DNA of 24,000 nt from Rhodanobacter sp. MP7CTX1 (GCF_014205795.1 NZ_JACHCN010000003.1:11198-35197); one strand, 5' to 3'; counted from the first letter of the stretch, positions 3,912 to 21,842 are shown. A program made the numbers and translations. Notes: generated by a model not told the origin, from the letters alone.

Positions 3912-3924
3912 CAGAGCCGCCGCA

Positions 3925-5262: not shown

Positions 5263-5859
5263 ATGCCCTACACAGAAGATTTCCGCTCCGCCGAAGAAAG
5301 GTCACGTCGTTTGGGCCTGGCTGTTCCCGCGTATGCATTTGAATCAGAACGTCGGTGGCTCGATGCCACTGCGCACGCTCAGTTTCCTTACATCGTACGT
5401 GGGGGCTTGGGTGAATTGGACTTCAGCGACGTTGTGGGTCAGTGCTTGGCCATTCACTATCGTCTGCTGCCAGTGATTCAAGAATGGCTTGGCTGCCCTG
5501 TTCTTTACACAAACGGTTGGGTCGACGACGGCACTGAGAATGGGATGTTCCGTTTCGATGAGATGTTCATCGAAGATAGACTACGGACCTATCGCACTGG
5601 AGGGCTAGTCAACATCCATGCGTGGCTAACATTGCCCAGTATGGAAATCATCGATGTATCACTAGCGACCAGTATGGCGGTACTGCAAGGATTGCCAAGC
5701 GGGCACGGTGGCGTGATTGCCATGCATGGGGATCAGACACGAGGGTTTAGCTACAAGCCAATGCTTGTTGGCTTAGATTTTCTGCATAAAACTGGTATGG
5801 CAGGATCTCGCGACGACGGTCGTGCAGCATGTAGTTACGTGCTGGCTGGAAGGAAGTAA
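5263..5859 (+). CDS. hypothetical protein with Cys61/His119/Asp131 pattern (possible transglutaminase/papain-like thiol hydrolase fold)
   Basis: 198 aa with an ATG start. GQCLAIH...NIHAWLTLPSMEIIDVS has the same residue pattern and spacing as the ORF at 10151-10780. The fold assignment is inference only. Confidence 0.55.
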   Translation: MPYTEDFRSAEERSRRLGLAVPAYAFESERRWLDATAHAQFPYIVRGGLGELDFSDVVGQCLAIHYRLLPVIQEWLGCPVLYTNGWVDDGTENGMFRFDEMFIEDRLRTYRTGGLVNIHAWLTLPSMEIIDVSLATSMAVLQGLPSGHGGVIAMHGDQTRGFSYKPMLVGLDFLHKTGMAGSRDDGRAACSYVLAGRK

Positions 5860-5928
5860 ACCGGTCTAGACGGGCCGGTACTCGCGACACATGGCGTTTG
5901 GGCAGCCGGCGTCGGCTCACAATGTCTC

Positions 5929-7041
5929 TTGCCCAACTTTGACTACATTGAATCGGTGGACCTTCGCAACTCGCTGCAAGGCGATTACGAGGAAATGCAA
6001 AAAGCCGCCAAGGTGGGAGCTTGGAAGAGCGCCCAGGTCATGGCTGGTAGCATCGTCGAATGCTTACTTGTCGATTATCTGCTTTCGAAGCCCGACGGGC
6101 CGCCCGGAAAGAATCCCCTAAAAATGGACCTCGCCGAAGCCATTGCTGCTTGCAAGGAGGATGGCGCAATTTCCGACCGAACGGCGGATCTGTGCGCTGT
6201 CGTCCGGTCATATAGAAACCTGATCCACCCAGGCCGAATGATTCGACTCGAAGAGAAGGCGCCAAACCGCGCGTCCGGTGAAATCGCGGTTGCACTGATC
6301 GAGCTGATCGTTGACGACATCGCGCAAACCAGAAGAGACACGGTAGGTCTGACTGCTGAGCAGATTCTCCAGAAGATCGAGAAAGATTTCCAAATTCAGT
6401 CGATATTGAGGCACCTTCTTGACGAAGTGCGGGAGGCTCAGCGCGTCAGACTTCTCACTGACCTTCTCCCCAAAGCACATCGGGCCCATCTAGGGTATTT
6501 CGAAGGTCAAGAGGTAGCGAAACGCATCGAGGCAGCCTTTCGAACGATATTTGAGTCGCTTTCCGCTTCTCGGAAAACGGAAGTAGCTGATCGCTTCGCG
6601 CGTTTGCTGCGGGAAGAGGATGGTGAAGTTATTGCGACCTACCGAATGGCTTTCTTCAAGGGGTCCGACCTGGAGCACCTGAGTCCGCAACACCTCGCGA
6701 TCGTCAAGGAGCATATCTTCGGATCGATCGGTAACTTGCTCAGAGACGAAGACTTAGCTGTCCTCGCCGGGATCGGCAAATTTCTAGTACCTGAGGACGC
6801 ACGGCGCTGGTTCGGGCCAATCATGTTATCGATTCTGTCGCCGAGCATCGAACAACAATTGAAGAAGAAGGCAAGGATCATAGCGATTGAAACGATAGCC
6901 CAGTCTGACTATGCCTTCTGGCAGGCCGCTGACAGGGTGGCGGCATCATGGATCAAGGCATACGAAGAGCGTGGAAAGTCCGACACCGTGGATCTTATTC
7001 AAGGATTCAGGAGCGACCTTGATGATTCGATTCCCTTCTGA
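5929..7041 (+). CDS. HEPN-domain protein (N-terminal HEPN plus ~230-aa helical C-terminal region)
   Basis: 370 aa. RSYRNLIHPGR (R93/R96...H100, nt 6205-6228) follows a helix with a conserved Glu (SIVECLLVDYL), a typical HEPN layout. The start is uncertain: TTG 5929, GTG 5956 or ATG 5995. Confidence 0.62.
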   Translation: MPNFDYIESVDLRNSLQGDYEEMQKAAKVGAWKSAQVMAGSIVECLLVDYLLSKPDGPPGKNPLKMDLAEAIAACKEDGAISDRTADLCAVVRSYRNLIHPGRMIRLEEKAPNRASGEIAVALIELIVDDIAQTRRDTVGLTAEQILQKIEKDFQIQSILRHLLDEVREAQRVRLLTDLLPKAHRAHLGYFEGQEVAKRIEAAFRTIFESLSASRKTEVADRFARLLREEDGEVIATYRMAFFKGSDLEHLSPQHLAIVKEHIFGSIGNLLRDEDLAVLAGIGKFLVPEDARRWFGPIMLSILSPSIEQQLKKKARIIAIETIAQSDYAFWQAADRVAASWIKAYEERGKSDTVDLIQGFRSDLDDSIPF

Positions 7042-7131
7042 TCATGAAGCGATAGGTTGGCAACTGATCAGGAAAAGTTCGCACGATCGTGGTGGGCTTG
7101 CGCAGCGGCATGCGGGCAACTTCTCTCCCCC

Positions 7132-7344
7132 TCATTGTGGTGGCAACCCACCTGTCACCGCGATCCACGCGGAGCGGGTGTAGTGCTCGATTTCCGAGTC
7201 TGAGGTCAATCGGTCGAGCAACAGTTTCATTTCGTGCTGATCGGAACCGGGCCGCAACGGCCCGGATTGGCGCTCGATCGCCAACACTGCTATAGCGAGC
7301 GCCTTTTTCACCAAATGCAGATCTCGTAATTCGATATTCGCCAT
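7132..7344 (-). CDS. small hypothetical protein (70 aa)
   Basis: ATG at 7344 is preceded by GAGGA at 6-nt spacing. Sequence begins MANIELRDLHLVKKALAIAVLAIERQ... No recognisable family. Confidence 0.4.
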   Translation of the reverse strand: MANIELRDLHLVKKALAIAVLAIERQSGPLRPGSDQHEMKLLLDRLTSDSEIEHYTRSAWIAVTGGLPPQ

Positions 7345-7505
7345 AGCGCATCCTCGATCCACGAAGAGGCAAAGAGAATAGCGCGACCGGCCAGTGAGCA
7401 CCTCACGCGAGTGTGCATCAAAGCTGGATCCCCGCATTCAAGTTCGCCCGCTCAAATACTCGTAGTTGTTTACCGTCACGTAGTAGCAGGAAGGAACGTT
7501 CGTAG

Positions 7506-7790
7506 CCAGGAAACCAAAGCGTACTCGCTTATCTTCCGAAAATATCTCACTGGGCGAAGGCGCCTGTCAGATGGCTGGCTGGATACATCCCCAAACTAAG
7601 AGGATTGGTCGAGCCTCAAGGGGTGCCCAAGGTGAAGAAGAAAGCGGCGGGATCCTTGCGGGCCGTCGGCAAGCGCTTTGTGTTCTTTGTCGACGATATC
7701 GACCGATTGACACCCAATGAAGCCCTGGACTTTTCCGAGAGATCGAGGCTCTCGGTGATTTCCCAGAGGTGGTTTACACCCAACCTCAAA
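7506..7790 (+). pseudogene. KAP P-loop NTPase gene fragment (Walker B region only, frameshifted)
   Basis: GKRFVFFVDDIDRLTPNEALD matches DRRVLIIIDDIDRLAPDEALG of the intact KAP at 14001-16136. After a frame change, LFREIEALGDFPEVVY matches VFRLVKSIGRLPNVMY. No Walker A is present. The fragment ends where the HEPN gene 3' end (7786) abuts. Boundaries are approximate. Confidence 0.55.
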
Positions 7791-8600
7791 ACTGCACTCC
7801 AGTCTCCCATTTCATCCTTAAATCGATGTTGGCGGTGACCGTCGCGAGTTGAGTCGCTGCATGGACTGCTTGCATGCAGTCATGTGCGTGGCAGACGGTT
7901 GATCCAGGTTCATGCACCAATTGGTTACGGAGCTTGCGAAGTGTGTCCACCAGGTCGGCAATCTTGGCAGGAATCAAGCCGGTGTCACGGAGTTCATTGA
8001 CCATTTTGCTGACTGGAATGGGGCGGCCGTTTTTTTGTGACCGAGGGCCAAAGATGGCCTTGACGGAAGACTCGATAACGAACCATAGAAGTGTGAAGGA
8101 GACCTTGTAGTCGTTGTTCTTGTAGGCTGTCTTCGCTTTTGCAATGAACGATAGTCTCTTCACCAAATCGGCGTCTTTCGACACGAAAGTAAAACTATCT
8201 AGGGCGTCTACAATCACCGATCTCTTGACCACGCGCCAAAGCGCCAAGTCATCGAGTGTCTCATTGGTGGTCAAAGGCGTCTTCATTCCGCCGGCTATCC
8301 ATGCAGTCAGATCGCTTCGTGCGCGCAGAGGCGACCAGCGTCGAGGATATCTTCGATTAACCACCGAGCCGTCCAGGAAGCCGACTCTACAGGTATCAGA
8401 GATCGACACTGCATCGGCTAAGGCCTCCTGCGAAATCGTGCATTTGAGTGATTCAGACTCGATAAGAAGTAGCAAAGTGTTCGCGTAGTCCAAGTGCTCA
8501 TCCCACCACTGGACAGACTCGTTGAGCTTGTTGGGGTCGCCCATGTTAGGTATGGATGTCGCTAGATGGTCCATTCTCAGAAGAACTAGGCCATCGATAC

Positions 8601-8604
8601 ACAC
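8601..8604. repeat. target-site duplication ACAC (left copy)
   Basis: ACAC lies immediately outside the IS terminus, and an identical ACAC sits at 9794-9797. Confidence 0.75.
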
Positions 8605-8645
8605 CGACGTCCCCCCGCTTTCAGTAGCGGAGCGAATTAGAGTCC
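8605..8645. repeat. IS terminal inverted repeat (orfB-proximal end)
   Basis: CGACGTCCCCCCGCTTTCAGTAGCGGAGCGAATTAGAGTCC compared with the reverse complement of 9752-9793. The first 13 nt are identical, then the two are similar with one indel. Confidence 0.72.
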
Positions 8646-8649
8646 GGGA

Positions 8650-9474
8650 TTACTGTAACTGTTTTGCATAGGCGGCAGGCGTCAGTCCGCCGAGTGCTTT
8701 CTTGGGTCGTTCCTCGTTGTATTCCCGACGCCAGCTTTCGATCTCGGTGCGTGCGTGTAACAGGCTGGGAAACCAGTGCTCGTTGAGGCATTCATCGCGA
8801 AAGCGGCCATTGAACGATTCGATATAAGCGTTCTGGTTGGGCTTGCCTGGTTCGATCAGGCGAAGCTGCACGCCACGTTCGTGTGCCCAGGTGACCATGG
8901 CCTTGCCGCAGAACTCTTTGCCGTTGTCGCTGCGAATGACTTTGGGCAGGCCGCGACTGAGCGCAAGACGATCCAGCACGCGCGCCAGGCCCATGCCGGA
9001 GATCGCCCGTTCAACCTCGATAACGACTGCCTCGTGGGTGGCATCGTCGACCACGGTTAGGCACTTGATGACACGAGCATCCGCCGTGCGATCAAACACG
9101 AAATCCATCGACCATACCTCGTTGGGTGCCGACGGCCGCAACAGCGGTTGCCGCTCAGCTACTGGCACTTTCTTCCGCTTGCGTCGGCGCACCTGCAGCT
9201 TCGCTTCCTGGTACAGACGCTCCACGCGTTTGTAGTTCACCAGCAGTCCCTCCTGTCGAAGCTTCAGGTAGATCATCCCCACGCCGTAGCGCTTGTGCCG
9301 CTGTGCCAGGGCCACGATCCGTTGTCGAAGATCCTCGTTACCATCCGGGCGCGTCTCGTAGCGATACGCACTGGCACTCATGCCCACGATCGCCAGCGAC
9401 CGGCGTTCGCTCAAGCCCTTGTCCACTATGTGCCGCACCAACTCGCGTCGAGCCGGTGCGCTCACCACTTTTTT
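8650..9474 (-). CDS. IS3-family transposase OrfB (DDE/rve catalytic domain), expressed as an OrfAB fusion by -1 frameshift
   Basis: The -1 frame from the slippery site reads [13 protein letters not shown]... and runs to the stop at 8650. It has an rve-type DDE triad. The upstream part of the 375-aa track ORF is a shadow of orfA. Confidence 0.88.
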
Positions 9475-9725
9475 CGCAACGCTTCCTTGATGACCTCGTT
9501 CTCGAGCACGTGCTCGGCGAGCAACTTCTTCAGCCGCGCGTTCTCCGTCTCCAGCTCCTTCAGGCGCTTGGCATCGGGCACGCTCATCCCGCCAAACTTG
9601 CTGCGCCACAGGTAGTACGAGGCCTCGCTGAAGCCGTGCCGGCGGCACAGCTCCTTCACCGGCATGCCGGCTTCCGCTTCGCGCAGGAAGCCGATGATCT
9701 GTTCTTCGGTAAACCGCTTCTTCAC
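9462..9725 (-). CDS. IS3-family transposase OrfA (HTH)
   Basis: (M)[45 protein letters not shown]... with a leucine-zipper-like tail. GTG start at 9725 is preceded by AAGGAG at 7 nt. The track start (TTG 9731) is 2 codons longer. Confidence 0.88.
9468..9474 (-). promoter_or_regulatory. programmed -1 ribosomal frameshift heptamer A AAA AAG
   Basis: The minus strand reads CGA AAA AAG TGG TGA in the orfA frame. This X XXY YYZ motif sits 2 codons before the orfA stop, the classic IS3-family arrangement. Confidence 0.8.
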
Positions 9726-9751
9726 GTCCAATCTCCTTGGGTTGAGGGATT

Positions 9752-9793
9752 GGACTCCAAATCGCTGTGCTACTCAAAACCGGGGGGACGTCG
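9752..9793. repeat. IS terminal inverted repeat (orfA-proximal end)
   Basis: The reverse complement reads CGACGTCCCCCCGGTTTTGAGTAGCACAGCGATTTGGAGTCC. Confidence 0.72.
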
Positions 9794-9797
9794 ACAC
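9794..9797. repeat. target-site duplication ACAC (right copy)
   Basis: Matches 8601-8604. A 4-bp duplication fits the IS407 subgroup. Confidence 0.75.
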
Positions 9798-10150
9798 AAG
9801 TGCTTTAAACGTGTCGTTTACTGTTTGAACGGCGATTTCGGGAATTATTCCTGCTAGACGGTGTGCGCTTTGAAAGTTGTAGGGGTCAATCGCCTCATCG
9901 ACCCAAAATCCTTCAGATGTATAGAAGCCAACAAACGTTTCCATTTGCTTTAGCTGGGCATCCATTCGCTCTTTGGTCATACTGCCGAGCCCGTTCATGT
10001 CCATTCGGTTTTGATCCGCATGTGTGTTCATTTTCTGGGCGTGTGCCAGGCGACGTCCGTCTGGAATTGAGTAGCACGAAGCATTAGAGGTCCTACCTCA
10101 CACTTGAGGAGATCGGACGTGAAGAAGTATTTTTCGGAAGGACGTAGCAT

Positions 10151-10780
10151 CTAGAACGGAAGCTTTTCGATTCGCGCATACCTCGCAAATTTGATCGCGC
10201 CGTGTGCCCAAGGGTCTCTGCGGGTCATGGCTCGCTGCAACGCTTCTTTTCCGCTGAAAATCCAAGTCGGTAGCGTCGGGCGTATTCCCTGTTCCCACCG
10301 GCTATTGCACTCCTTAAGAAATGCTTGCATGCGGCCAGTGATGGTGTCGTTCGACGCTAGTTGTACGTCGGGCTCATAGCGAAATTTCGGTCGATATCGG
10401 AGGAATAGTGGGCACTGAGCAAGTGGCAGCGCTATCGCTGGTATGGTCGCAGCGGGAAAGCTGGATTTACGAGGCAAATAGTGGGGGCCTAGGTCGAGGA
10501 GTCGCCCCGAGGACTCGACCCAGAAATGCGACGGCAGCGCTAAATCGCTTCCTTGCCCGAAGCCCTGAAAATTTGCTTGCCGGCCGTCCTTCGAGACGAC
10601 GAATGCAAGAAAATCACCTCCAACAATACGGGCGTCGAGGCCCAATTGTCTGAGTAGTGAGGAAAGACCGAAGGCGGCGTACACGCATCGTGCATCGTAG
10701 TCATCTGGGAACAGCTCACGCAGCATGCTATCAATGAGACCCATGCAACTCGCTATCTCGTTCGAAGCTTCCTGGCTCAT
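10151..10780 (-). CDS. hypothetical protein with Cys32/His85/Asp96 pattern, divergent paralog-like of 5263-5859
   Basis: 209 aa from the ATG at 10780, with AAGGA 9 nt upstream. ARCVYAAFGLSSLLRQLG...PSHFWVESSGRLLDLG. The 98-codon N-terminal extension in the track ORF looks non-coding. Confidence 0.55.
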   Translation of the reverse strand: MSQEASNEIASCMGLIDSMLRELFPDDYDARCVYAAFGLSSLLRQLGLDARIVGGDFLAFVVSKDGRQANFQGFGQGSDLALPSHFWVESSGRLLDLGPHYLPRKSSFPAATIPAIALPLAQCPLFLRYRPKFRYEPDVQLASNDTITGRMQAFLKECNSRWEQGIRPTLPTWIFSGKEALQRAMTRRDPWAHGAIKFARYARIEKLPF

Positions 10781-11423
10781 CGTTTCAATTCCTTTAGCGT
10801 GCTGGTGGGGCAAACATGGCGGTTTCGCTTGTGCCACGGCCATACCCCGACGCTGTGGCGAGTTCGGTGCGGCTTGTAATCTTAGGCGAAAACTAGTCGG
10901 GCAAGAGTGGCTTCCCCCCCACGAGTCCCTGTGCTGGCATTGATGCGCGAAGAGTTGAAGTTTCGATTCAACGTCAGTGCATACGAGGCCGCGCAGAAAA
11001 AGACGGCCGACCACGCCAAAAACCAGGTTGGCCCGACGCTCGACGCAATGCGTAAAGGCGCGTCCTCCCAGCAAGGCTGAGCCTTGCTCAAGGCCTCGGA
11101 CGACACAGAAGTTCCCCGTGTGCAGTAGCAGCCGGCTCTAACAATCCTGTTTCGGAAAAATGCCTGGGCATTTGGGCCTCATAGTCGGCGTTCGTGGCTG
11201 ACGGCTTTGCCGGCGCGTAACACTACCGCTGGGCTTGGGCAGCACAAGTAACTAAACTCGTACCTGTCGAAACGCGGAAATTGCGTCTCTCAGAGGTGGC
11301 CTCCTGAGACTGATGATGGCGGGCTGTACACATGCGGTTTTTGGCCCCACGGGTTTCCTGCTGGGGTTTGGGGTTACCGAAGTGATCGCTCTTCTATCTG
11401 AAATCACAAAGGAGGATATGCGC

Positions 11424-11549
11424 ATGGTCCAAAAGGCAGCGGTATCGAGTGGGAGGCGGCTGTGGTCATACGTCAAAAGTTCTACCAGGCGCTTCATCGC
11501 GTTTTGGGAGGCTCACCTTCCTTACAGGCAACACAGACAAACCTGCTGA
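11424..11549 (+). CDS. possible small basic protein (41 aa)
   Basis: A strong AAAGGAGG at 11408-11415 lies 8 nt before ATG 11424. Sequence: MVQKAAVSSGRRLWSYVKSSTRRFIAFWEAHLPYRQHRQTC. It ends ~100 bp upstream of the AbiU2-like gene. Confidence 0.3.
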   Translation: MVQKAAVSSGRRLWSYVKSSTRRFIAFWEAHLPYRQHRQTC

Positions 11550-11652
11550 TGAGCTTGTGCAATTCAAGCGAAAAGGGCCTGAGAGCGGTGCCTAACAATT
11601 CTAGGCGAACGGTCGCGTCGCCGCTCAGTTCCACCACTATGTCCCGCAACCG

Positions 11653-12216
11653 ATGACCGTCGCGTTCAAAATTCTTGGCCACCTTATCGACGAAGCAAAT
11701 GCCGCTCGCGCGCATTTTCAAGTGTGGTGGGCGTTGCGCAACCTGGCGTTGCCAGAGTTTTACGACACAATGAATGATTCCAAGTATGTCCAGTTCTTCC
11801 ATGCTTCGAATTCTGGCCATTACAAGCTGGTGTTCGTTGCTCTAGGTAAGATTTACGACAGTGACACCCGCGCCGCTGGCATAGCTGAGTTGAAGAGCGC
11901 CTTACGAGCCGAGGGGCGAGCTGACGTGGCGGATAAGGTCCAGCGGGACTTGGCCTCAATGAACGCGCATGTGCAACGCATCCTCGGGATTCGCAACCGC
12001 ACCGTGCTGCACAACGAACATGCTCTAGAGCGGGCTATTGTCTATGAGATGCATGGCATTCAGCCAGACGAAATATGGGAGTTGATTGACGCGACGTCAG
12101 AAGCCTTTAACGTAGCAGCTGAGGCTCTTGGGCACTCGTTCCGCGTCTCTGCAAGCAAATCTTACGAGGCGGCTACACTCGCTATGCTCGAACAATTGCA
12201 ACGTGGCGGCGCCTAA
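11653..12216 (+). CDS. HEPN-domain protein, AbiU2-like
   Basis: 187 aa. ILGIRNRTVLHNEH carries an RN...H motif (R114...H120, nt 11992-12012). The size and the helical N-terminal part (HFQVWWALRN, LVFVALGKIYD) resemble abortive-infection AbiU2-type HEPN proteins from memory. Confidence 0.6.
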   Translation: MTVAFKILGHLIDEANAARAHFQVWWALRNLALPEFYDTMNDSKYVQFFHASNSGHYKLVFVALGKIYDSDTRAAGIAELKSALRAEGRADVADKVQRDLASMNAHVQRILGIRNRTVLHNEHALERAIVYEMHGIQPDEIWELIDATSEAFNVAAEALGHSFRVSASKSYEAATLAMLEQLQRGGA

Positions 12217-12423
12217 CTGTGCGCTCAGGACAGGAAACGCCGCTTGGTTAGCGCCCGGAGCGGACATAACGAGAAGCTTTTCGAATCACCATACTCTGGC
12301 TATTGAAATAGAAATTGAAGGGCTCTTTGGCATTGTCGAAAAGCCCCTTGGAGCTCAAGCCAACGGCAAGTTTGCGATTCCTGGAGTGAGCTATCCCGCC
12401 TGACGCTTCTGCGGGCAGCTAGC

Positions 12424-13941
12424 TCAGCGTTGAGGGATTGGTGGCTGCCATCCAGTCACTGGTCCGACGTGAACGCTGATGCCGTATGCAAATTGATGCT
12501 GATGATATGGAGATCCGCGGTAGAGAATTGCGTCGACCTCTTGGGCGAGCTCTCGATAAAGCTCGTTGTCCGTCGCGCAGGAATACAAAAGCGCAATGCG
12601 CAGTTTTTGAGGCCCGCTTGAGGCGGCGACCTTGACATATAGCGAACGATCGTCTGGCTCACCAATCTCGACGCTCCAGCCTGCGTTTCTTAAAGGTCGC
12701 ACCAGATCGTCAATGCATTCCTGCTGAAGCACGGCTTTTCGTAGCAAGACGCCGTCGTCGGTAGGCATTGCAGGTACCAGCCTGCCATGCTGGCGATAAT
12801 TTTGTTGTTCGATTTGCTTTACTGCCATTTGGGCCTGCGCTTGCAACATCGCCTGCTGCCATAGAAGCCTGCCGTCCTCATCCATGCCAGGGAATATAAG
12901 CGGCACCTGATTGGACTCATCGTGCCATGACTCGATCACCCCAAGTGTTGCAATAGCCACCACAAGACGCGAAAAATTTGACGGCTTCTGCCAGTCCATT
13001 GATGCGCCGTGTGCGAACAGGTGTCGGTTTAACCAAGTGAGGCCGTCATACTCGCCGGTACGGCGAAAGAATGAATTCTCGAGCCACCGCCGGAAGGTTT
13101 GAAATACAAAGACTCGTTCGTCCTGCACGTAAAGGTAATCTTTTTCGCGGTACTCGGATGGAACCCACATGTCACCGAAGTGCGATCTGGCTGCCAACAT
13201 GCATGCCCGATCAATAATTTTGTCGACCTGCTCGAGAACAGGTTGCCCTGCGGCTTCGCTCGATATGCGACTGACCGCGCCTTCCATCACCGGAATCAGC
13301 GCCGCAATGCTGGAGGCCCTGTGCCCTGAATAGAACGCGAGATAGGCTTCCCGTGCGATCGGGGCAAATACCGAAAGCGATCGAGACTGAGGCAAGAATT
13401 GCGCGATGCACACTGCCTGAAACGGTAACGTGTAGATCGTTGATGTGTGATATTCAAACAATCGCAGCGCGTCCTCTTTGGAACGGTGCTCAATCGCCTG
13501 AAGTAGCTCATTGACCTTCCCCTGGGGAACCCAGAGAGGTGCAAACCACTCGACTTTTTCCCACAGGCTTGCGATCCGGTCCAAATGGACTTTGTGGGCG
13601 ACCCATTGCGGGTCACCAGTTGCCGCAACTTTCGGAAAGCAGGCTATTCCCTCGTCCGACTGCAGAACAACTGCGGGAGTGGGCCGGAAGATGCCAACAC
13701 TACGCTCCGAAACATCGAGCACTTTGATTTCCATCTGGTGGGCCCAGCCAGAGACCAGGTCCGCCTGAAGATCATTCAAGCTCGGCAGCGCCATAGCACG
13801 CCGCCAGAGTCCGGGAAATTTCGATCGACTCTCTTCGCCAGTCATTTCCGTCCAAATGCCGAGTTCGTCTTTCATGATCATTTGGACAGATTTGTCACTA
13901 TCAGCCCACCGTTCGCAGTGATCGACCAACCGGCCGCTCAC
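12424..13941 (-). CDS. large hypothetical protein with central HEPN-like region (Rx4H)
   Basis: 505 aa, 60 bp downstream of the KAP NTPase on the same strand. FAPIAREAYLAFYSGHRASSIAALIPVMEGAVSRI ... TWLNRHLFAHGAS (R306...H311, nt 13009-13026) ... NFSRLVVAIATLG. The GTG start at 13941 is uncertain. Confidence 0.7.
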   Translation of the reverse strand: MSGRLVDHCERWADSDKSVQMIMKDELGIWTEMTGEESRSKFPGLWRRAMALPSLNDLQADLVSGWAHQMEIKVLDVSERSVGIFRPTPAVVLQSDEGIACFPKVAATGDPQWVAHKVHLDRIASLWEKVEWFAPLWVPQGKVNELLQAIEHRSKEDALRLFEYHTSTIYTLPFQAVCIAQFLPQSRSLSVFAPIAREAYLAFYSGHRASSIAALIPVMEGAVSRISSEAAGQPVLEQVDKIIDRACMLAARSHFGDMWVPSEYREKDYLYVQDERVFVFQTFRRWLENSFFRRTGEYDGLTWLNRHLFAHGASMDWQKPSNFSRLVVAIATLGVIESWHDESNQVPLIFPGMDEDGRLLWQQAMLQAQAQMAVKQIEQQNYRQHGRLVPAMPTDDGVLLRKAVLQQECIDDLVRPLRNAGWSVEIGEPDDRSLYVKVAASSGPQKLRIALLYSCATDNELYRELAQEVDAILYRGSPYHQHQFAYGISVHVGPVTGWQPPIPQR

Positions 13942-14000
13942 TGACCAGCCGATCGCGTCCTGAAGCGAATTTTACATACCGTTAGCATGGACTCTATCGG

Positions 14001-16136
14001 TCAAAATCTCTCCGACCCCTTTCTCGCCCACGCCTCCAGGAATACCCGCACGGCCTCGAGGTCTTCTGCGGGCCGCCGCTGCTCGCGAGCGATACGCTCC
14101 AGTGCAGTTCGAAACTGGTCTGGATCAAACAAGTCAAAGTCGCTGCGAATATCGACACGCATCTCTCGGCGTGACACGCGATCACCGAGGCTGCCAAACC
14201 CACCCAGCCCTGTCGTCCTTGACTCACTAGTCAACGCGCGCGCCAGCCGCACCAGGACATCGTCGCGGCGCATTCTGTCGGTGAGCCAAGCCTTCATTTC
14301 GGCACCGTCGTCGCCGGCAAACTCCCTCCAGCGGTACAGGCAATACATGATGTCTCGCTGGAGTAGCAGCGAATCATCCTGGGCTGCCTGGCGTAGCGCG
14401 TTTAACGCGCGCTCTATCAGGGCGGGCAAAGCTTCCTTCGTCGTTAGTGCCGTCGCTAAATCTAACTCTCGTCCCTGCCGGGGATAGTGATCAGCGTAGG
14501 CCGAAGAAACAAAATCAACCAGCCAGCCCAATGTGGCGCGCTCGGTAGCGGCCAAGTAGAGCGCGGACTTTTCCTCGAGCGTGAAGCGATCTTCTGTCAC
14601 GCGGCGAATGAGCCAATGTATACGCAGCGACGTCGTAGCCATCGCGAAACCACGCTCTCCGTCTTGCTCGCGATCAATCGCGTCGGCGATCTCGAAGATG
14701 GCCGAGAAGAACGCGGGCACCTTGTCTTTGGCGATTTGTCGCCCATGACTGGTCAGCTCGTCCAGCACCACCGGGACCATCGATTTAGCTTTGCTCCGAA
14801 GCTGTGTCGCTGCACGCAACAACCTCTCTTGAATGAACTCTTTGTCACCCGATCGATCCAGAAGCTCCCGGATCTCCTTACTGGGCAATGTGTCGTCGCT
14901 CAAGGACATCTTGAAATAGGTATCGAAATGCTTGGCCACGCACACGCGGCGTTCCAATTCCCAGCTTTCGCGAAACCCCGAGTATGTGACTTCCTCGAAC
15001 GCCGGGAACAGACGCTGCAGAGCAATTTGCAGCCCTTCAAGGCGCTCTTTCGGCATGCCGGCCAAGAACGGATCGAAGCGCGCCTTGTCCCTCGACCCAC
15101 CCCGACTGGCGCTGGTCACAATATCCCGGTGCTGCCGGATCGACGTGTAGAGCGAGGGCTCGTACAGGCGCAAGGTTTCTAAGGCGAGGTAGTCGGCGTG
15201 GCTGACGTTGTTGGCCACTGGCGGCCAGGTAACAGTGATCGCGTTGATCAAGCGAGTAACGTGCCGCGGCGTGGTGAGGTAGGGAACCACCACGTCATAG
15301 AACAAATTCATGAAACGCACCTGATGCTCTTCCTTAGGCGTACCGCACCGTTCCTGGAAGGCCGTCAGTAGCGCGTTGTGCAAATCGCTGGGCGTTGGCG
15401 AAGGAAGTTCGAAGCTGGCTTGGATGATCTTCTCGAGAAAGTGAGGGCCTTCAGAAGGAAAGCGCTCCTTGACCGCAGCATCGGCCAGCGCACGATCGAA
15501 CACCATCAGATACATAACGTTGGGCAAGCGACCGATGGACTTGACCAGCCGAAACACCCCCAACGCCTCGTCCGGGGCCAACCGGTCGATGTCATCGATG
15601 ATGATTAACACACGCCGGTCCTGCGCCTCGAGCGTCTTGGAGAGCTTGCGAAAGGTCTTTTCCAACGAGGGTTTGTCGGGGAAAAAGCGCTTGGCGAAGG
15701 CTGCCGAGCCCGCGGCCAAGGCACCCCAACCGCTGGTCGTAGCCAAGGCGATCGCACTGCCGAGTACCGGCCCGGCTTGAAGCACGTGGCGACCCATTTC
15801 CGGCACTAGGTCTTTGACCTTGTCACCCAAGGAGCTCTTCAGTGCGGAGTTCAGTTCTTGCAAAAACGCCAGGGCGATTGCTTCCTCGCCTCGGTACCAC
15901 CAACACTTAAAATCAAAGACCGACAAGGTGTCGTCCTTTCGCTCGAGCAGTTCTGCCCGAATCAAGTTGACGGCACTGCTCTTGCCCGAGCCCCACGGGC
16001 CGGTCACCGCAATGGTGCTCCCGACAGGTTTGGCAATGCCAAGCAAACTCGTCGCCAGAGCCTCGGCAAAGGCGTGGACTCCATAACAATCGTCTTCCCG
16101 ACGTTCAATTGGACTGTCGTTAAAGTACTGGGACAT
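14001..16136 (-). CDS. KAP-family P-loop NTPase
   Basis: 711 aa. Walker A is GPWGSGKS (nt 15978-16001). A Gly/Ala-rich hydrophobic insert (AGPVLGSAIALATTSGWGALAAGSAAF) separates the Walker motifs. Walker B is RVLIIIDDIDRLAPDEAL, followed by LMVFDR. RBS GGAGAAAGGG precedes the ATG at 16136. Confidence 0.92.
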   Translation of the reverse strand: MSQYFNDSPIERREDDCYGVHAFAEALATSLLGIAKPVGSTIAVTGPWGSGKSSAVNLIRAELLERKDDTLSVFDFKCWWYRGEEAIALAFLQELNSALKSSLGDKVKDLVPEMGRHVLQAGPVLGSAIALATTSGWGALAAGSAAFAKRFFPDKPSLEKTFRKLSKTLEAQDRRVLIIIDDIDRLAPDEALGVFRLVKSIGRLPNVMYLMVFDRALADAAVKERFPSEGPHFLEKIIQASFELPSPTPSDLHNALLTAFQERCGTPKEEHQVRFMNLFYDVVVPYLTTPRHVTRLINAITVTWPPVANNVSHADYLALETLRLYEPSLYTSIRQHRDIVTSASRGGSRDKARFDPFLAGMPKERLEGLQIALQRLFPAFEEVTYSGFRESWELERRVCVAKHFDTYFKMSLSDDTLPSKEIRELLDRSGDKEFIQERLLRAATQLRSKAKSMVPVVLDELTSHGRQIAKDKVPAFFSAIFEIADAIDREQDGERGFAMATTSLRIHWLIRRVTEDRFTLEEKSALYLAATERATLGWLVDFVSSAYADHYPRQGRELDLATALTTKEALPALIERALNALRQAAQDDSLLLQRDIMYCLYRWREFAGDDGAEMKAWLTDRMRRDDVLVRLARALTSESRTTGLGGFGSLGDRVSRREMRVDIRSDFDLFDPDQFRTALERIAREQRRPAEDLEAVRVFLEAWARKGSERF

Positions 16137-16149
16137 CCCTTTCTCCGTA

Positions 16150-16190
16150 GGCTTTGTAACCTACTATATATATTGCACTGGGCGTTTCTT
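16150..16190 (-). promoter_or_regulatory. possible promoter of the KAP operon (AT-rich TATATATA/TATAGT tract)
   Basis: The only strongly AT-rich stretch in the 280-bp gap upstream of the KAP start. A minus-strand TATAGT-like -10 is present, but no convincing -35. Confidence 0.25.
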
Positions 16191-16416
16191 GGCGTGAGAA
16201 TCGGCCTGGCCGTTCTCTCTTCGCCGACGCCGATCCTGCCGCTTCGAAGAATAGCCGATGCTTTTCTCCGCGGCGGTCCTAGTCTGCGACCGCGAAATCG
16301 GCTCTCCAGTCACCAGTCCCTTGTAGATATGCCGAGGAGATCGGTAACCGACATGCCGGAAGGGAAGTGATGCTTAAACTGTCGATGGTCGGGTCTATTC
16401 ACCTTCTATCAGAGCA

Positions 16417-17181
16417 TCATCGAGATGAGTTCGTCGGGGTTGAGGTGGCTCCATCACTGTGCTGCACTCTGGACGTTGCCCACACTACCGATCCTATCGG
16501 TACGGTTACTACTTCCTCATGGGAGAAAAGGGCACAGAAGCGATCGGAGCATTGCATGATCCGATATGAGTGAAGCACTCCGTCAGGAGACGTGACCACG
16601 ATCGCCGGCGCATTGGGAAACCCTCGCGCGAAGTCTTCCGCAGCCGTTGCAGCTCCTACGTGCAGGAAAGGTGCCACAAGGAGTAGGAGCGTGGCGCCAA
16701 TTACAAGGCACAGGGTGTAGAGCATATAGGCGCCGAAGAAGGCGCTGAAGACCCAAAGGGCTGCCAGCTTTACCGCAGGGTGCAGCGAAAGCGACCGAGT
16801 ACCTTGATGCGATCGTGAGCTACGCCAGCGCTCGGCAAGCTGGCGAAGGTAATAAGCGCCGACAGCCAATACCACGATTGAAATAGCGGGCACCAGAGTG
16901 GTGGCCGCCCAGTGCATTTTGAAGGTGTCACTGATGGCCGTAAAGACCCTGGTTGCCCCTCCCATCCAGGCGAGCGCTGCAAAGGTCAATGTATCGGGGA
17001 CATCGGATGGGAACATGGAAGAGGATAGGTGAAAGTAGCCAAGATAGCCTTCGTGAAAGGCTACCCCGTTCAAATAGAACACGGGTGTAAGGATTGCGAT
17101 TGCGGTAACTAGCCATTTGGCGATGGCATACCAAGCCATCTTTTCTTTCCCACCATCCGTGGCTGCAGATTCAGCGTCCAT
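16417..17181 (-). CDS. multi-pass membrane protein (4-5 TM) with a ~70-aa soluble C-terminal domain
   Basis: 254 aa. Hydrophobic segments: WLVTAIAILTPVFYL, LTFAALAWMGGA, LVPAISIVVLAVGAYYL, LAALWVFSAFFGAYMLYTLCLVIGATLLLLVAPFL. GAGGA RBS upstream of the ATG at 17181. Confidence 0.75.
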   Translation of the reverse strand: MDAESAATDGGKEKMAWYAIAKWLVTAIAILTPVFYLNGVAFHEGYLGYFHLSSSMFPSDVPDTLTFAALAWMGGATRVFTAISDTFKMHWAATTLVPAISIVVLAVGAYYLRQLAERWRSSRSHQGTRSLSLHPAVKLAALWVFSAFFGAYMLYTLCLVIGATLLLLVAPFLHVGAATAAEDFARGFPNAPAIVVTSPDGVLHSYRIMQCSDRFCALFSHEEVVTVPIGSVVWATSRVQHSDGATSTPTNSSR

Positions 17182-17230
17182 GTTGCATATCCTCTAAATT
17201 TTGACGAAGTTGCCATTAGGCTTTGGGTTG

Positions 17231-17264
17231 GTCTCGCGGAGCGAGACTGGGCGGTGGCCCGCCC
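17231..17264 (-). promoter_or_regulatory. two adjacent perfect GC-rich hairpins in an intergenic region
   Basis: GTCTCGC-GGA-GCGAGAC (17231-17247) and GGGCGG-TGGC-CCGCCC (17249-17264). No U-tract follows on either strand. Confidence 0.35.
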
Positions 17265-17322
17265 CCTGAATCATAAGCAGTTCCAGCCTACTTCGTCCGC
17301 GGGCCCCGATGAACGCCACGCC

Positions 17323-17766
17323 CTAGTAAATCCCATGTGCTGTTCGGTACAACAGGGACTCTACTAGACGGGCACCGCTATCGCTTACAGCTAAGGCCAT
17401 CGGAGTGATGGGAATTTGCTTGGGAATGTAGTTTGCGGGAGTGCGGAGCCACTTCAATGCGGCTTCCTCATTGCAAAACAGTTGCACAGCCTCGGCAAAG
17501 ACACGGGCCAGGCGCACGACACGATCGGATTCGTGTACGGCGAATCGGCTGTTAGAAGCGAGTCGGCGCCGCACTGTACTTTCAGGGACGAGAAGGCCGG
17601 GTGGCAACCTGAGCTTTGCCGTCACGCGCATGTATGTTCGGGCGCTGATACCACTGGAAACCGCACGGACGACATCGGCTTCAGAGTCAAGTTTCAGGTT
17701 AAGCAGCTCGCTCATCCGAGTGAAAATTGGCACCGTTTGGACTGACGGATTGGGAAGATCTCGCAT
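17323..17766 (-). CDS. Xre/MbcA/ParS-type antitoxin-like protein (DUF2384 toxin-binding domain)
   Basis: 147 aa. ESDRVVRLARVFAEAVQLFCNEEAALKWLRTPANYIPKQIPITPMALAVSDSGARLVESLLYRTAHGIY matches the conserved C-terminal domain of RES-associated antitoxins. GAGGAGG lies 7 nt upstream of the ATG. Confidence 0.82.
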   Translation of the reverse strand: MRDLPNPSVQTVPIFTRMSELLNLKLDSEADVVRAVSSGISARTYMRVTAKLRLPPGLLVPESTVRRRLASNSRFAVHESDRVVRLARVFAEAVQLFCNEEAALKWLRTPANYIPKQIPITPMALAVSDSGARLVESLLYRTAHGIY

Positions 17767-17853
17767 GACGTGTCCTCCTCATTGTTCGGTCATCGGTCTT
17801 CTTGAAGGTATCTGCGTTGACGGGGTTGACCCCATTAGGGCGGCTGAATTCGG

Positions 17854-18597
17854 TCACGTCGAAGCGGGACGTCTGTAAAACGGTTCGAGTTGCAGGCCGG
17901 ATATTCCCGCACGATGGGACGGCTCTTGGGGAAGGAAGCAAACTTGAAACATGTTCGAGGTAAGGCCTGCGTCACATGCGATTCGAATGAGTGCGTCCTC
18001 TAGTACAGCCTCGTGCGCCGCATTTACTGCGAGAACAATCTGCGGCGGCACGTCACGATTGGGGTGATGCAATTCGTACATGTAGGCCTCATCAATGTAA
18101 CCGGTGGACACAAACCAGGACGCCAAGGCGTAGGCAACTGGGTAGAGGCTATCGTCAGGCAATCGGAACACCCACGGACTGTCATGCGACGGAAGGCTCC
18201 CGAATTCCGGGTCGGCTGCAGCAAGAGCCTGCAATCGTTTGTACGCGAAATCGCTTATCTCATATTTGACGGGCGAGAGCGGATTGATCACAAAGCGCCG
18301 CTTGTTTGTGCTCAATAACAAACGAAGCATGTGCACCCGGACATAGGTCGCTGGGGAAGGTAAGGCTGGCGGTCCACGAGATGTCGAAGTGAAGAGGGGA
18401 ACAACATGCCGACCATCGGTATACCCCCACTCGACCAGATTGTGTCTGGGGTCTGCCTCGCCTGGACCGGGTGGGCATCTGAGTATGGCAACGATGGTGC
18501 TCGTCGACAGCTGGTCGAGGAAATCCAACTCACCATTCTCACTTAAAAATCCAGCATCTATCTGTTCGCCCAATGGGTCATGGTGCTCATCTGACAT
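17854..18597 (-). CDS. SseB-family protein
   Basis: 247 aa. WGYTDGRHVVPLFTS...FVINPLSP...E parallels E. coli SseB (W..DG..VIPFFTS...). The C-terminal ISGLQLEPFYRRP parallels HIAPFYERR. AGGAG RBS lies 6 nt upstream of the ATG at 18597. Confidence 0.68.
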   Translation of the reverse strand: MSDEHHDPLGEQIDAGFLSENGELDFLDQLSTSTIVAILRCPPGPGEADPRHNLVEWGYTDGRHVVPLFTSTSRGPPALPSPATYVRVHMLRLLLSTNKRRFVINPLSPVKYEISDFAYKRLQALAAADPEFGSLPSHDSPWVFRLPDDSLYPVAYALASWFVSTGYIDEAYMYELHHPNRDVPPQIVLAVNAAHEAVLEDALIRIACDAGLTSNMFQVCFLPQEPSHRAGISGLQLEPFYRRPAST

Positions 18598-18896
18598 CGT
18601 CTTCTCCTTTTCTAGTCCGCACGCCGCGAGAATTTCTGCTTCTTAGCCACTACGCGAACCAAAACCGTTCAAGGGTGATTTCTCCACTCTGCTGTCACCG
18701 CGGATCGGCCGGCTAAAGCCCGTTCTGAAGCCGTTTCGGACTTGTCTTTCGTATCGTGTATATCACACGGAAAAACAATGACTTACGCTTGACTTGGCAG
18801 TGCGAATATGCCAGTTTTTGCCCGTGAGTACACCCCGGATCGCCGTCAGAGGGATGGGCTCCCGCGTCGTCTGCCCGTACCCCGGCGAGTGGGCTT

Positions 18897-18916
18897 AATC
18901 CGGACCAATCCGGACT
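18897..18916. repeat. tandem 10-bp direct repeat AATCCGGAC(C/T) x2
   Basis: AATCCGGACC AATCCGGACT lies immediately upstream of the RBS/start of the AlpA-like gene. Confidence 0.3.
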
Positions 18917-18930
18917 GAGAGGCGTTGGTC

Positions 18931-19197
18931 ATGGGCGATAACCCCCAATCCCGAGTGGACCTTGAGCTGTACCTGCCCAGGACACCGGTTATAAGCGGCG
19001 CAGAGACTGCCCGCATCATGGGGTTTTCCACTACCGAAGCCCTTTACAAGGCACGGCAAGCCGGACGGCTGCCGATCGACCTGTTTCGCTTACCTGGACG
19101 ACGAGGCTGGTTTGCGGCTACTCCCGCTGTGAGAGAGTGGTTGCACGGAGTCATGTCCGAAGGGGGCGTCGGTACCAACCCAGGAGACAGGAGATGA
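18931..19197 (+). CDS. AlpA/excisionase-type helix-turn-helix DNA-binding protein
   Basis: 88 aa. VISGAETARIMGFSTTEALYKARQAGRLPIDLFRLPGRRGWFATPAVREWL fits the HTH_17/excisionase pattern. ATG 18931 preferred over the track TTG at 18925. Confidence 0.68.
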   Translation: MGDNPQSRVDLELYLPRTPVISGAETARIMGFSTTEALYKARQAGRLPIDLFRLPGRRGWFAATPAVREWLHGVMSEGGVGTNPGDRR

Positions 19198-19340
19198 CTA
19201 TGAGCGAATAGCCCACTTGGCGGGCTATAAAAGTTCGAGCCCCGCGTGGCAAGACGCAGGGCTCGGATACGAAGGCGAAGCTTTTGAGAATCGCGCTTCT
19301 CCTTCCTTATAGTGCCGCCCCCAGAGCACGTCAAGCGATT

Positions 19341-19357
19341 TCACCGCATAGCGGTGA
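19341..19357. promoter_or_regulatory. perfect inverted repeat TCACCGC-ATA-GCGGTGA upstream of the transposase gene
   Basis: 7-bp arms and a 3-nt spacer, 83 bp upstream of the ATG at 19440. Possible operator. Confidence 0.35.
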
Positions 19358-19439
19358 TGAGTTGATCCCGCGTGTTCGGATTTCCGGCGACCCTGCCAGG
19401 CCGTCTAGGTCCTTGCGCGCCCAGCGAGGAGGCACACCC

Positions 19440-21842
19440 ATGTTTAGTGATGCTCAGCGAAGCCTTTACTACCAAGCACGAGGTCTACATTCCACCGCCC
19501 TGCGCGAAGTCGAGGAGATGAGGGTGAACAGCCCGGCGCGAGAACCCAGTCAACGTGGCCTCACGAACACCATTGTCGACTTCCACTCAACGATGAGCGA
19601 CCGGCGGTGGTTGTTGGAGAGCTATACCGGCGAATTTCTCTTCGCGCTCTATCTAGAGGTGTTCAGTGGCTGCGACGAGTACTACGCTCAGGTGCGGCCG
19701 AAGAACGTGGTTCGCAATAGGCGGACGAGCTCGCTCACCGTCGACTTCATGGTGTTTGATCGGGCGGGAATCCGGCTCGTTGAAGTAAAGCCGCAAAGCC
19801 GACTGGAAGCGCTGGGTACTTCGAACCCCGAAGAGTGGGTATGCCACGCGGGGCGCTGGACGAGGCCGCCGGTGGAAGCGTGGGCAAGCGATCGAGGTCT
19901 GACCTACACCATCTGGTCCCCACCGGAACCTCACGGCATTTGTCAGGTAAACCTACTGTCTCTTTACGGAGTGGTGGCCGATACAGCGGCTCGAGAAGCC
20001 GAAATGAAGTGCGTTCGGCGCTTACGCAGGTTATTGCAGAAAGGCCCCCTAACCATATGCGACGCACTCGATAGGGTCTCTGGCCTCTCTGGAGTGCACG
20101 TACTCGCTGCGCTGGCAAAGGGATACATCTTCGGTCCTTTGCAGTCGGTTCCTCTCGACGAGGCTGGCCGCTTCACGCTTTTCGGCGTCAAAGCGCAGGC
20201 GGTCGAGTGCGATGAGCGACTGCTGAGTCAGCTGAAGGCGCATGTCAGCCAGCCCAACGTCGGCTCGAAGCTTATGCTGGCGAGCCCCAAGGACTACGCC
20301 AGCGCCCAACTTCGCCTAGCAAAGGTGAATCGAATCTTGGCGGGTGAGGTGCCCGCGACTCGACGATATGCTCCTTTGGTCCGCATCGTGTGCCAAGCGC
20401 GATCAGACGGACAGAGCGAGCTCGAAGTCTGCCTGACGCGCTACGCGAACTCGGGTCGACGCATAGGTCAGTTGACGGGCGATCAAGAGCGCGAAATGGC
20501 CGCGGCAATTGACGCGTATCGGAAGAATCCTGATATTCGCAACAAGCTCCAAGCCCATGACTATTTGGTAAAAGCCTGCGATCTTAAGGGCATTCGTCCT
20601 CCGGGCCGTGCGACTTTCAACGCTCGCCTTCGTCAGTCGAGCGACTTGGTGCGCGCTTATACCGAAGGAGGCTACAGGGGCTACCACGCCGCGGAGTGTG
20701 TATCAGACCCTGGTAATAGAACACTGCGTTGCAACGTGCCGGGCCTGATGGTGCACATCGACTCCACGAAGTTCGATTTGCGCTGTACTCCCGATTTCCT
20801 GGGTGCCTTGGAGTTCGACTGTCCGACACTCTACGTGGCCATGGATTCGGCTGCAGCTAAGCCGTTGGGCTACGCCGTATTGTTTGGTCCGGCGTGCCGC
20901 AACGCGTTAGCTGTGCTCATTCGCGACATCTTTCACAGGCAAGGTTTTTTGCCTCGTTACTGGATCGCTGATGGTGGCGCGGAATATGTCGGCCCCTGGT
21001 TTGCAGAAGCGTGTTCGTTTTTTGGCGCTACCCGCATACAGCCACCTCCGGGTACTCCCCGCAGGAACTCGCTTGCAGAAAACGCCCTAGGTCGAATCAA
21101 CGCCGAACTCGCGCATCGCTTCTTGGGTAGCACCGCGCCGGATCAAAAGGGACGCTCGGTCACTTCACGCCAAAAGAGCTACGCCACAGCCTGCCATCGT
21201 TACTCGACGATCGCAGAACACCTTGAGAAATATCTCTTCGAAGATGTCCCCGAGACACCACTGTTGTCTACGCGGTTCAGCCCTCAGGAAAGGAACGATG
21301 AGCTTACCGCCCTCTATGGCAATGCTGGTGCAGTAAGGATTCGGAATCTGGATGAGTTCCTGATCGTAACCTCGGTTCCTCTCGGTCGAGGAGTCACCGC
21401 CGATCCTCGTCGTGGGATCCGTTATCTCCAACGAACCTACGCCAGCGCTGACCTCATGCAACTCCTTCGCTTTCATAAGCCGATCGACATACGGTTGGAT
21501 TGTGTGGATCCGCACCGAATGTACGTGCGATTTCCATCGAAGTGGGTGCTCGCAATGACCAGCCAAAGCTTGCAAACCGGTGGTAGGGATACCGCGACCA
21601 AACTTTTCGAATCCATCATGGATAGCAAGCTGAGAAGCGAAGGGGCGCAGAAACGCGACGAACTTCGGAGAAAACGCGCAGAGCGCATTGCCGAAGCAAA
21701 CCTAGCAGCCAAGACGGCGGACCACCTCACATACATGCTTAAGCCTGCGAAAGATGCGCCACCGAAGACTAAGAAAACACGCATCTGGAGTGATCTCAAA
21801 AGCCCAATTGCCCCCTTCACCACCGGACAGGGTGACCTATGA
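19440..21842 (+). CDS. fused TnsA-like endonuclease / TnsB(TniA)-like DDE transposase
   Basis: 800 aa from ATG 19440, with GAGGAGG 7 nt upstream. The N-terminal part, LESYTGEF...LTVDFMVFDRAGIRLVEVKPQ, has the E/D/K pattern of the TnsA restriction-endonuclease-like fold. The C-terminal part has an rve-type triad: HIDSTKFD (D, nt 20760-20762), WIADGGAEYVG and NSLAENALGR. It also has the Mu/TnsB-type motif RRGIRYLQRTYAS. Confidence 0.82.
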   Translation: MFSDAQRSLYYQARGLHSTALREVEEMRVNSPAREPSQRGLTNTIVDFHSTMSDRRWLLESYTGEFLFALYLEVFSGCDEYYAQVRPKNVVRNRRTSSLTVDFMVFDRAGIRLVEVKPQSRLEALGTSNPEEWVCHAGRWTRPPVEAWASDRGLTYTIWSPPEPHGICQVNLLSLYGVVADTAAREAEMKCVRRLRRLLQKGPLTICDALDRVSGLSGVHVLAALAKGYIFGPLQSVPLDEAGRFTLFGVKAQAVECDERLLSQLKAHVSQPNVGSKLMLASPKDYASAQLRLAKVNRILAGEVPATRRYAPLVRIVCQARSDGQSELEVCLTRYANSGRRIGQLTGDQEREMAAAIDAYRKNPDIRNKLQAHDYLVKACDLKGIRPPGRATFNARLRQSSDLVRAYTEGGYRGYHAAECVSDPGNRTLRCNVPGLMVHIDSTKFDLRCTPDFLGALEFDCPTLYVAMDSAAAKPLGYAVLFGPACRNALAVLIRDIFHRQGFLPRYWIADGGAEYVGPWFAEACSFFGATRIQPPPGTPRRNSLAENALGRINAELAHRFLGSTAPDQKGRSVTSRQKSYATACHRYSTIAEHLEKYLFEDVPETPLLSTRFSPQERNDELTALYGNAGAVRIRNLDEFLIVTSVPLGRGVTADPRRGIRYLQRTYASADLMQLLRFHKPIDIRLDCVDPHRMYVRFPSKWVLAMTSQSLQTGGRDTATKLFESIMDSKLRSEGAQKRDELRRKRAERIAEANLAAKTADHLTYMLKPAKDAPPKTKKTRIWSDLKSPIAPFTTGQGDL

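Follow-up and report, generated by a model that had tools for sequence, protein, structure and literature searches.

Adjacent PifA-family and HEPN-like genes in a Rhodanobacter genomic island: probably two independent defence candidates

Introduction

In a 24,000-nucleotide stretch of DNA from Rhodanobacter sp. MP7CTX1 (NZ_JACHCN010000003.1:11198-35197, referred to below as the window), two open reading frames (ORFs) follow each other on the minus strand: gene 1 (14001-16136), which encodes a KAP P-loop nucleoside triphosphatase (NTPase) of 711 amino acids (aa), and gene 2 (12424-13941), which comprises 505 codons when counted from its first GTG. An earlier, sequence-only reading of this DNA had joined the two into one defence module, with the NTPase as a sensor and the gene 2 protein, thought to carry a HEPN domain, as a ribonuclease (RNase) effector. 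The question raised by the locus is whether the neighbours form a single system or whether two systems have come to lie next to each other. Our analysis favours the latter: with a probability of roughly 0.6, gene 1 and gene 2 are two independent single-gene defence candidates side by side in a horizontally acquired island.

Results

Gene 1 and gene 2 move separately in other genomes

We scanned 57 genome loci encoding members of the gene 2 family for KAP genes within 8 kb. Such a gene was found at only two of them, and neither layout was operonic: at one locus (L042) the KAP gene lies on the opposite strand from the gene 2 homologue with a serine recombinase gene between them, and at the other (L049) a 210-aa ORF separates the two. 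Clustering of the flanking ORFs at 60 loci revealed no recurrent partner of the gene 2 family, its commonest neighbour being a serine recombinase (5 of 60). No KAP gene occurs within 5-8 kb of the closest relatives of gene 2 (87%, 83% and 78% identity). The relatives of gene 1 at 87%, 86%, 74%, 70% and 53% identity, the last being an E. coli clade on integrative conjugative elements, are followed by other genes and have no gene 2 relative among their neighbours.

The nucleotide comparison (blastn) gave the same picture. Related KAP cassettes (L067-L069) align exactly over 14001-16229, stopping at 14001, and a related gene 2 cassette (L066) aligns exactly over 12424-13878, leaving between them a 122-bp spacer (13879-14000, minus strand) that is unique to Rhodanobacter sp. 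MP7CTX1. The lack of shared partners among the relatives, the rarity of KAP co-occurrence and the cassette ends at the gene borders indicate that the two genes were brought together here, each being mobile on its own. In other words, gene 1 and gene 2 are not a conserved module but two autonomous genes that move separately elsewhere.

These data bear directly on the proposal of one two-gene system, in which infection is sensed by the KAP NTPase, which then activates the HEPN RNase, and they make it very improbable. The genes do share a strand at a distance of 59-155 nucleotides (nt) with no predicted terminator between them, KAP genes near gene 2 homologues, rare as they are, exceed the expectation for random placement, and in single-protein defences that have been validated, KAP domains control the effector regions attached to them (PMC13552941). 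No close homologue of either gene, however, keeps the partner; the other two co-occurrences have a gene in between, one of them with the genes on opposite strands; cassette similarity stops at the borders of each gene; gene 1 already possesses a full PifA-type C-terminal region of its own; and the gene 2 family is found alone in phage hotspots. The sensor-effector model thus fails because gene 2 homologues are not syntenic with KAP NTPases, a finding that the sequence-only reading had itself named as grounds for abandoning it.

The distance between the genes depends on the start codon chosen. The products of both genes are 100% identical to deposited entries, that of gene 2 being a hypothetical protein of Rhodanobacter sp. 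MP7CTX1 (P0001). The deposited start of gene 2 is ATG 13875, which yields 483 aa and a gap of 125 nt, while its homologues favour ATG 13845 (473 aa), so that the protein is likely to have 483 or 473 aa. Both ORFs exist at the coordinates read from the sequence, but the supposed spacing of about 60 bp (59 nt) is obtained only with the first GTG. Terminator-like and promoter-like sites were sought in the spacer and none was seen. Since no terminator separates gene 1 from gene 2, they may be co-transcribed in Rhodanobacter sp. MP7CTX1, and this speaks against their full independence.

Two other arrangements around gene 2 homologues are worth recording. In B. pseudomallei a 444-aa MauJ-domain protein is encoded 23 bp after the homologue (L073, 9535-10869), and in another lineage a 117-aa ORF overlaps the start of the homologue by 8 bp (L075, 7655-8008). 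Both could be lineage-specific partners of gene 2.

Gene 1 belongs to the PifA family

Translation of gene 1 confirmed the complete KAP NTPase expected from the sequence (Pfam KAP_NTPase PF07693, E 3.5e-46, residues 22-303), with Walker A GPWGSGKS at residues 46-53 (15978-16001, minus strand; the lysine is K52) and Walker B IIIDDIDR at residues 178-185 (15582-15605, minus strand). Between the two lies a Gly/Ala-rich insert (residues 115-152; 15681-15794, minus strand), as is typical of KAP proteins. This insert had been described as hydrophobic; it is present, but it is only mildly hydrophobic, with a maximum Kyte-Doolittle 19-residue mean of 1.36, and contains no clear transmembrane helix.

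The sequence-only reading did not recognise the pairing of the two genes as a named system. As for gene 1 by itself, residues 2-691 of its product match positions 3-706 of the 720 in the PADLOC PifA model PDLC02361, a match over the full length (E 2.1e-116). In BLASTP, its alignment with PifA of an E. coli IncF plasmid, where the PifA gene lies downstream of pifC, extended from one end to the other (24% identity, 702 aa, E 2e-41). Judged by these alignments, gene 1 adds a member to the known PifA family and is not of an unnamed type. The 254-aa ORF upstream of gene 1 was considered as a candidate PifC and rejected, as it bears no similarity to that protein. To our knowledge, nothing shows that exclusion depends on PifC, which is a regulator.

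On the F plasmid, PifA is the classic example of an abortive-infection determinant made up of a single gene; it senses the T7 proteins gp1.2 and gp10 (PMC8594841). Validated phage defences also include other single-gene KAP NTPases to which C-terminal regions are fused (PMC13552941; 'Reve' in PMC13586616). If it works as F-plasmid PifA does, the gene 1 protein would recognise a phage protein and bring about abortive infection by means of its own C-terminal region, in an NTP-dependent and membrane-directed manner. Because the identity is as low as 24%, its trigger and mechanism may depart from those of F PifA, which tempers this analogy.

The central domain of gene 2 carries a HEPN-type signature

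The AlphaFold2 model of the gene 2 protein (mean pLDDT, the predicted local distance difference test score, 86) has three domains, all encoded on the minus strand. The N-terminal one is small and of the alpha/beta type (13621-13818; in P0001 numbering, helices 20-28 and 38-47 and strands 52-81), and it is absent from the shortest family members. It is followed by a HEPN-like, all-helical central domain of about 280 residues (12778-13620) and by a C-terminal alpha/beta module of 113 aa with the order alpha-beta-beta-beta-alpha-beta (12436-12774). In a Foldseek search of PDB, an alpha/beta part of the model weakly matched the Cap4 nuclease domain, Hjc resolvase and NIF3-like proteins.

Two elements of the central domain had attracted attention in the sequence: the glutamate of IPVMEG (E220 in ORF numbering, used below unless stated otherwise; 13279-13296, minus strand) and the R-x4-H motif R306-H-L-F-A-H311 within LNRHLFAHG (13009-13026, minus strand). 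To assess them we used an alignment (A2) of 37 divergent family members sharing 17-35% identity. H311 is the sole invariant residue of this alignment, and only P135, G206, E220, N305, R306, N322 and F323 are conserved in at least 90% of its members. R306 is followed by H or N in almost every one of the 37, and R or K follows E220 after three to four residues (R225 in gene 2 itself), giving an E-x3/4-[KR] pattern. In the model, E220 lies in a helix (186-205 in P0001 numbering). Both elements are thus borne out, and their conservation across such divergent proteins shows that they are not due to chance. HEPN domains are defined by R-x4-6-H, in which the arginine is followed by N, D or H, together with an upstream acidic residue, often within E-x3-[KR] (PMC3710099). 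The conserved E220 and the N305-R306-x4-H311 pattern match this published definition of the active site. In HEPN domains, R-x4-6-H is located at the junction of helices 3 and 4 (PMC3710099).

The fold of the domain was then compared with known structures and profiles. Modelled alone, the central domain gave a pLDDT of 82.6 and a predicted template modelling (TM) score of 0.81. Among the predicted viral structures of BFVD it matched two uncharacterised phage proteins at probability 1.0, as well as a phage DUF4209 protein at a Foldseek probability of 0.96 (TM score 0.46-0.47 over 246 columns, E 0.48). DUF4209 corresponds to the C6orf70 HEPN family of Anantharaman et al., which is classed as active and is found in restriction-modification contexts.

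Several comparisons weigh against the HEPN assignment. Foldseek searches of PDB with the full gene 2 model and with the central domain alone returned nothing at E <= 0.001, the matches being non-specific all-alpha or of low probability, and a profile search of PDB sequences with A2 found nothing. Just one of the 37 members, P0375, matches Pfam HEPN (PF05168), and this below threshold (E 0.002; 18.7 bits against a gathering cut-off of 22); weak as it is, this match counts in favour of the assignment as well, since it covers precisely the helix pair bearing the acidic residue. When the core of the gene 2 family was compared by hhalign with the DUF4145 protein of the window, the same helices were aligned without reaching significance (E 0.085; deepening of the DUF4145 alignment had yielded only two homologues), and the comparison with the AbiU2 protein of the window was not significant either. 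Taken together, the HEPN layout claimed for gene 2 holds as a signature, while the fold found no confirmation by Foldseek against PDB and weak support elsewhere. We regard membership of the central domain in the HEPN superfamily as probable rather than demonstrated.

The gene 2 family most likely acts as an infection-triggered HEPN-type RNase. The central domain would be a metal-independent RNase that stays inactive until infection and then halts phage growth by cleaving RNA. The N-terminal domain and the swappable C-terminal module of gene 2 might serve in sensing, regulation or oligomerisation; the active site of HEPN proteins is normally formed across a dimer.

It is also conceivable, if unlikely, that the gene 2 protein is not an RNase and that its E...NR-x4-H residues serve some other purpose, for instance in binding a ligand or nucleic acid or in controlling the mobile element on which the gene resides. 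The absence of any significant match to a HEPN model or a solved structure would agree with this, as would the best structural neighbours being uncharacterised phage proteins, and non-catalytic HEPN domains have been documented (PMC3710099). Those domains, however, have usually lost R-x4-6-H, whereas conservation in the gene 2 family is highest at R and H; moreover, the expected polar residue after the R and the upstream acidic residue are present, and the genomic context is that of defence genes.

The gene 2 family is widespread and occupies defence hotspots

The gene 2 protein has no match in Pfam, PADLOC, NCBIfam or PHROGs, its phage homologue belongs to no PHROGs family either, and our literature search found no paper naming the family. 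An exhaustive search of 1.84 billion representatives yielded 243 relatives, including short forms (250-390 aa) confined to the central region and otherwise unrelated proteins that have only the last ~110 residues in common with gene 2. The family proper, of about 475 aa, is distributed over Alpha-, Beta-, Gamma- and Deltaproteobacteria, Acidobacteria and one Nitrospirae metagenome-assembled genome, and its members in different phyla reach 55-60% identity, thus indicating horizontal transfer. Truncated copies in several genomes (L051, L053, L057-L059), among them a second, partial copy in Dyella monticola, suggest that the gene decays frequently.

In phages, the homologues take up positions typical of defence genes. 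In the P2-like Yersinia phage vB_YenM_56.17, gp01 is a full-length homologue, located between the integrase gene and the genome end, a position described as a minor P2 defence hotspot (PMC13586616). On a P. luteola replicon, a homologue lies in a P2-like prophage in the portal-proximal hotspot, three genes from the portal gene and adjoining HNH and RelE/ParE-Xre genes. A scan of viral contigs with the family alignment A1 matched only two contigs. On an IMG/VR contig with a P2-type gpD gene, the homologue stands beside genes for an AAA_21 ATPase and a DUF4435 protein, which we take to be the domain pair of PARIS. At further loci, gene 2 homologues are found near SIR2 and DUF87 genes (a HerA-like pair), MmeI-type, NotI-type and type III restriction-modification genes, and small serine recombinases. 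The latter have been proposed as markers of defence loci (PMC13552941), and the P2 hotspots hold validated anti-phage systems (PMC9122126, PMC13586616).

The same surroundings could be read in another way, with gene 2 as a toxic nuclease that mainly stabilises its mobile element, by addiction or by exclusion of competitors, and not as an anti-phage gene. This is in keeping with the travel of the family with small serine recombinases, plasmids, prophages and integrative elements, and with a relative that has the same C-terminal module and adjoins a recombinase gene on IncF resistance plasmids. On the other hand, no conserved antitoxin-like partner gene was found, and the family sits in the very P2 hotspots that harbour validated anti-phage systems (PMC9122126, PMC13586616), making an element-stabilising toxin an improbable explanation.

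The C-terminal module is shared with plasmid proteins

Residues 390-502 of gene 2 are homologous to the N-terminal module of plasmid-encoded 'YaaC family' proteins (hhalign probability 99.5%, E 1.6e-22), which occur on E. coli, Citrobacter and Klebsiella plasmids, with tblastn matches to IncF plasmids. The conserved residues of the module are R, L, W, A, Y, G and P, with no catalytic set of the nuclease type, and a profile search with its alignment (A4) found no relative among PDB sequences. Because many members of the gene 2 family in A2 are devoid of the module, and because it stands at the N-terminus in YaaC proteins, it behaves as a portable accessory domain, for which a role in sensing or assembly may be suggested. 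The central domain was also considered as a homologue of the YaaC domain, and this was rejected (hhalign E 0.076).

On the E. coli IncFIA plasmid pHNEC46, the gene for a 'YaaC family' protein (L060, 5427-7542) lies directly downstream of a small serine recombinase gene and a few kb from blaNDM-1. It may be considered a candidate defence-type gene on resistance plasmids.

The island and its other genes

The G+C content of the window falls from 0.60-0.64 in the metabolic genes at 1-4700 to 0.53-0.58 at 4700-24000, a part crowded with defence-type and mobile genes. Both features fit a horizontally acquired defence island, in support of the setting proposed from the sequence. No tRNA gene marks the boundary at the edge of this low-G+C stretch.

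Gene 2 is surrounded in the window by an AbiU2 HEPN gene, two DUF4145-like genes, an IS3 transposase gene and an Xre/MbcA-type antitoxin gene. The AbiU2-type protein (11653-12216, plus strand; Pfam E 8.6e-10) is encoded about 200 bp from the end of gene 2 and convergently with it, and its gene is a third HEPN-like gene in the island. Weak DUF4145 (HEPN) matches were found in two ORFs, 5929-7041 (plus strand) and 7786-8604 (minus strand). The latter carries ESSVK...RNQLVH, a textbook HEPN signature, and has only two detectable homologues in 5.8 billion proteins.

A second KAP remnant had been noted at 7506-7790. A piece of a KAP gene is indeed present on the plus strand, but it amounts to only 36 aa around Walker B, at 7620-7727 (tblastn 41.7% identity, E 2e-4; Pfam KAP_NTPase E 2.5e-4). 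An IS3-family transposase gene (8650-9777, minus strand) lies close to it, and an earlier KAP gene at this site may have been destroyed by insertion.

On the other side of gene 1, an Xre/MbcA/ParS-type antitoxin-like gene (17323-17766, minus strand) is followed by the 254-aa ORF (16417-17181), which has no family match; together they may constitute a toxin-antitoxin pair with an unrecognised toxin. Further on, at 19284-22825 on the plus strand, an 852-aa ORF without a family match shares 4 bp with the start of a gene for a 328-aa AAA_22/TniB-like ATPase; the two may represent a transposition or defence module.

Discussion

In this work, we addressed the relationship between a KAP NTPase gene and its HEPN-like neighbour, and a presumed new KAP-HEPN two-gene system can be removed as a false lead. 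The case shows that adjacency within a defence island can mimic an operon. The lead that remains is the gene 2 family, which is widespread and horizontally mobile (Proteobacteria, Acidobacteria, P2-like phages and plasmids), bears a sharply conserved HEPN-type signature and occupies validated defence hotspots. We tentatively propose, at somewhat less than even odds, that this family constitutes an anti-phage system that has not been named before, consists of one autonomous gene and has a new, strongly diverged HEPN family as its basis, with an optional module of ~110 aa that is exchanged with plasmid YaaC-family proteins as a portable unit for sensing or assembly. Our data show to which family gene 1 belongs, that the motifs of gene 2 are conserved, that both genes are autonomous and that their context is one of defence hotspots, whereas RNase activity, as well as the triggers and any anti-phage phenotype of gene 1 and gene 2, are what we infer from them. 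If the gene 2 family does protect against phages, annotation tools would gain one more single-gene HEPN system, and a small domain common to two different effector scaffolds would be exemplified. The advance would be incremental rather than conceptual, the system being of a familiar kind.

Among known systems, Qat (in which QatA is a KAP NTPase) and Tmn resemble gene 1 in having at their centre a P-loop NTPase of the KAP type or close to it. Assignment of gene 1 as QatA was rejected, as the match is limited to the P-loop region and the NCBIfam QatA model scores 49.7 bits against a cut-off of 600. Furthermore, none of the ten largest other ORFs of the island, including the flanking ones (through 10151-11074 on one side and 16417-22825 on the other), has a PADLOC match, so that no QatBCD-like partner was detected there. 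Tmn, with which gene 1 had been compared in the sequence-only reading, is a YobI-type NTPase (PMC13001434). Gene 1 is not Tmn: its match to Pfam YobI-ATPase (E 0.023) is below threshold, it has no clear transmembrane segment, and none of its nine PADLOC matches is to a model named Tmn.

PifA of the F plasmid is the close counterpart. Like gene 1, it is a KAP P-loop NTPase of ~710-740 aa with Walker A and B, an insert and a long C-terminal region, encoded by a stand-alone gene on mobile DNA and alignable over its whole length. The two differ in that their identity is only 24%, that gene 1 has no pifC repressor gene upstream, and that gene 1 is chromosomal, within a Rhodanobacter island, whereas PifA resides on an enterobacterial plasmid.

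With the single-gene HEPN proteins of abortive infection, namely AbiU2, AbiD/AbiF, ApeA and DUF4145 (PMC3710099), gene 2 shares several traits: it is an autonomous gene found in defence islands as well as in hotspots of prophages, its all-alpha domain contains R-[N/H]-x3-H in addition to a conserved acidic residue, and accessory domains are fused to the HEPN core. Unlike a member of these families, it shows no significant sequence or profile match to them, its acidic residue is separated from the motif by a longer distance (86 residues), and it has an N-terminal domain of its own as well as the optional C-terminal module. The central domain also superposes on the phage DUF4209 protein and so resembles C6orf70/DUF4209, though with an E of only 0.48; no Pfam DUF4209 match was obtained for the 37 members even at E <= 5, and membership in that family is not established.

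Finally, the 'YaaC family' proteins (e.g., WP_086353235 of E. coli IncF plasmids) are comparable to gene 2 in size (~505 aa), in the possession of the ~110-aa module and in adjoining small serine recombinase genes, while the effector domains of the two are not detectably related. In YaaC proteins the module is N-terminal and fused to the YaaC domain PF14175, whereas in gene 2 it is C-terminal and follows the HEPN-like domain.

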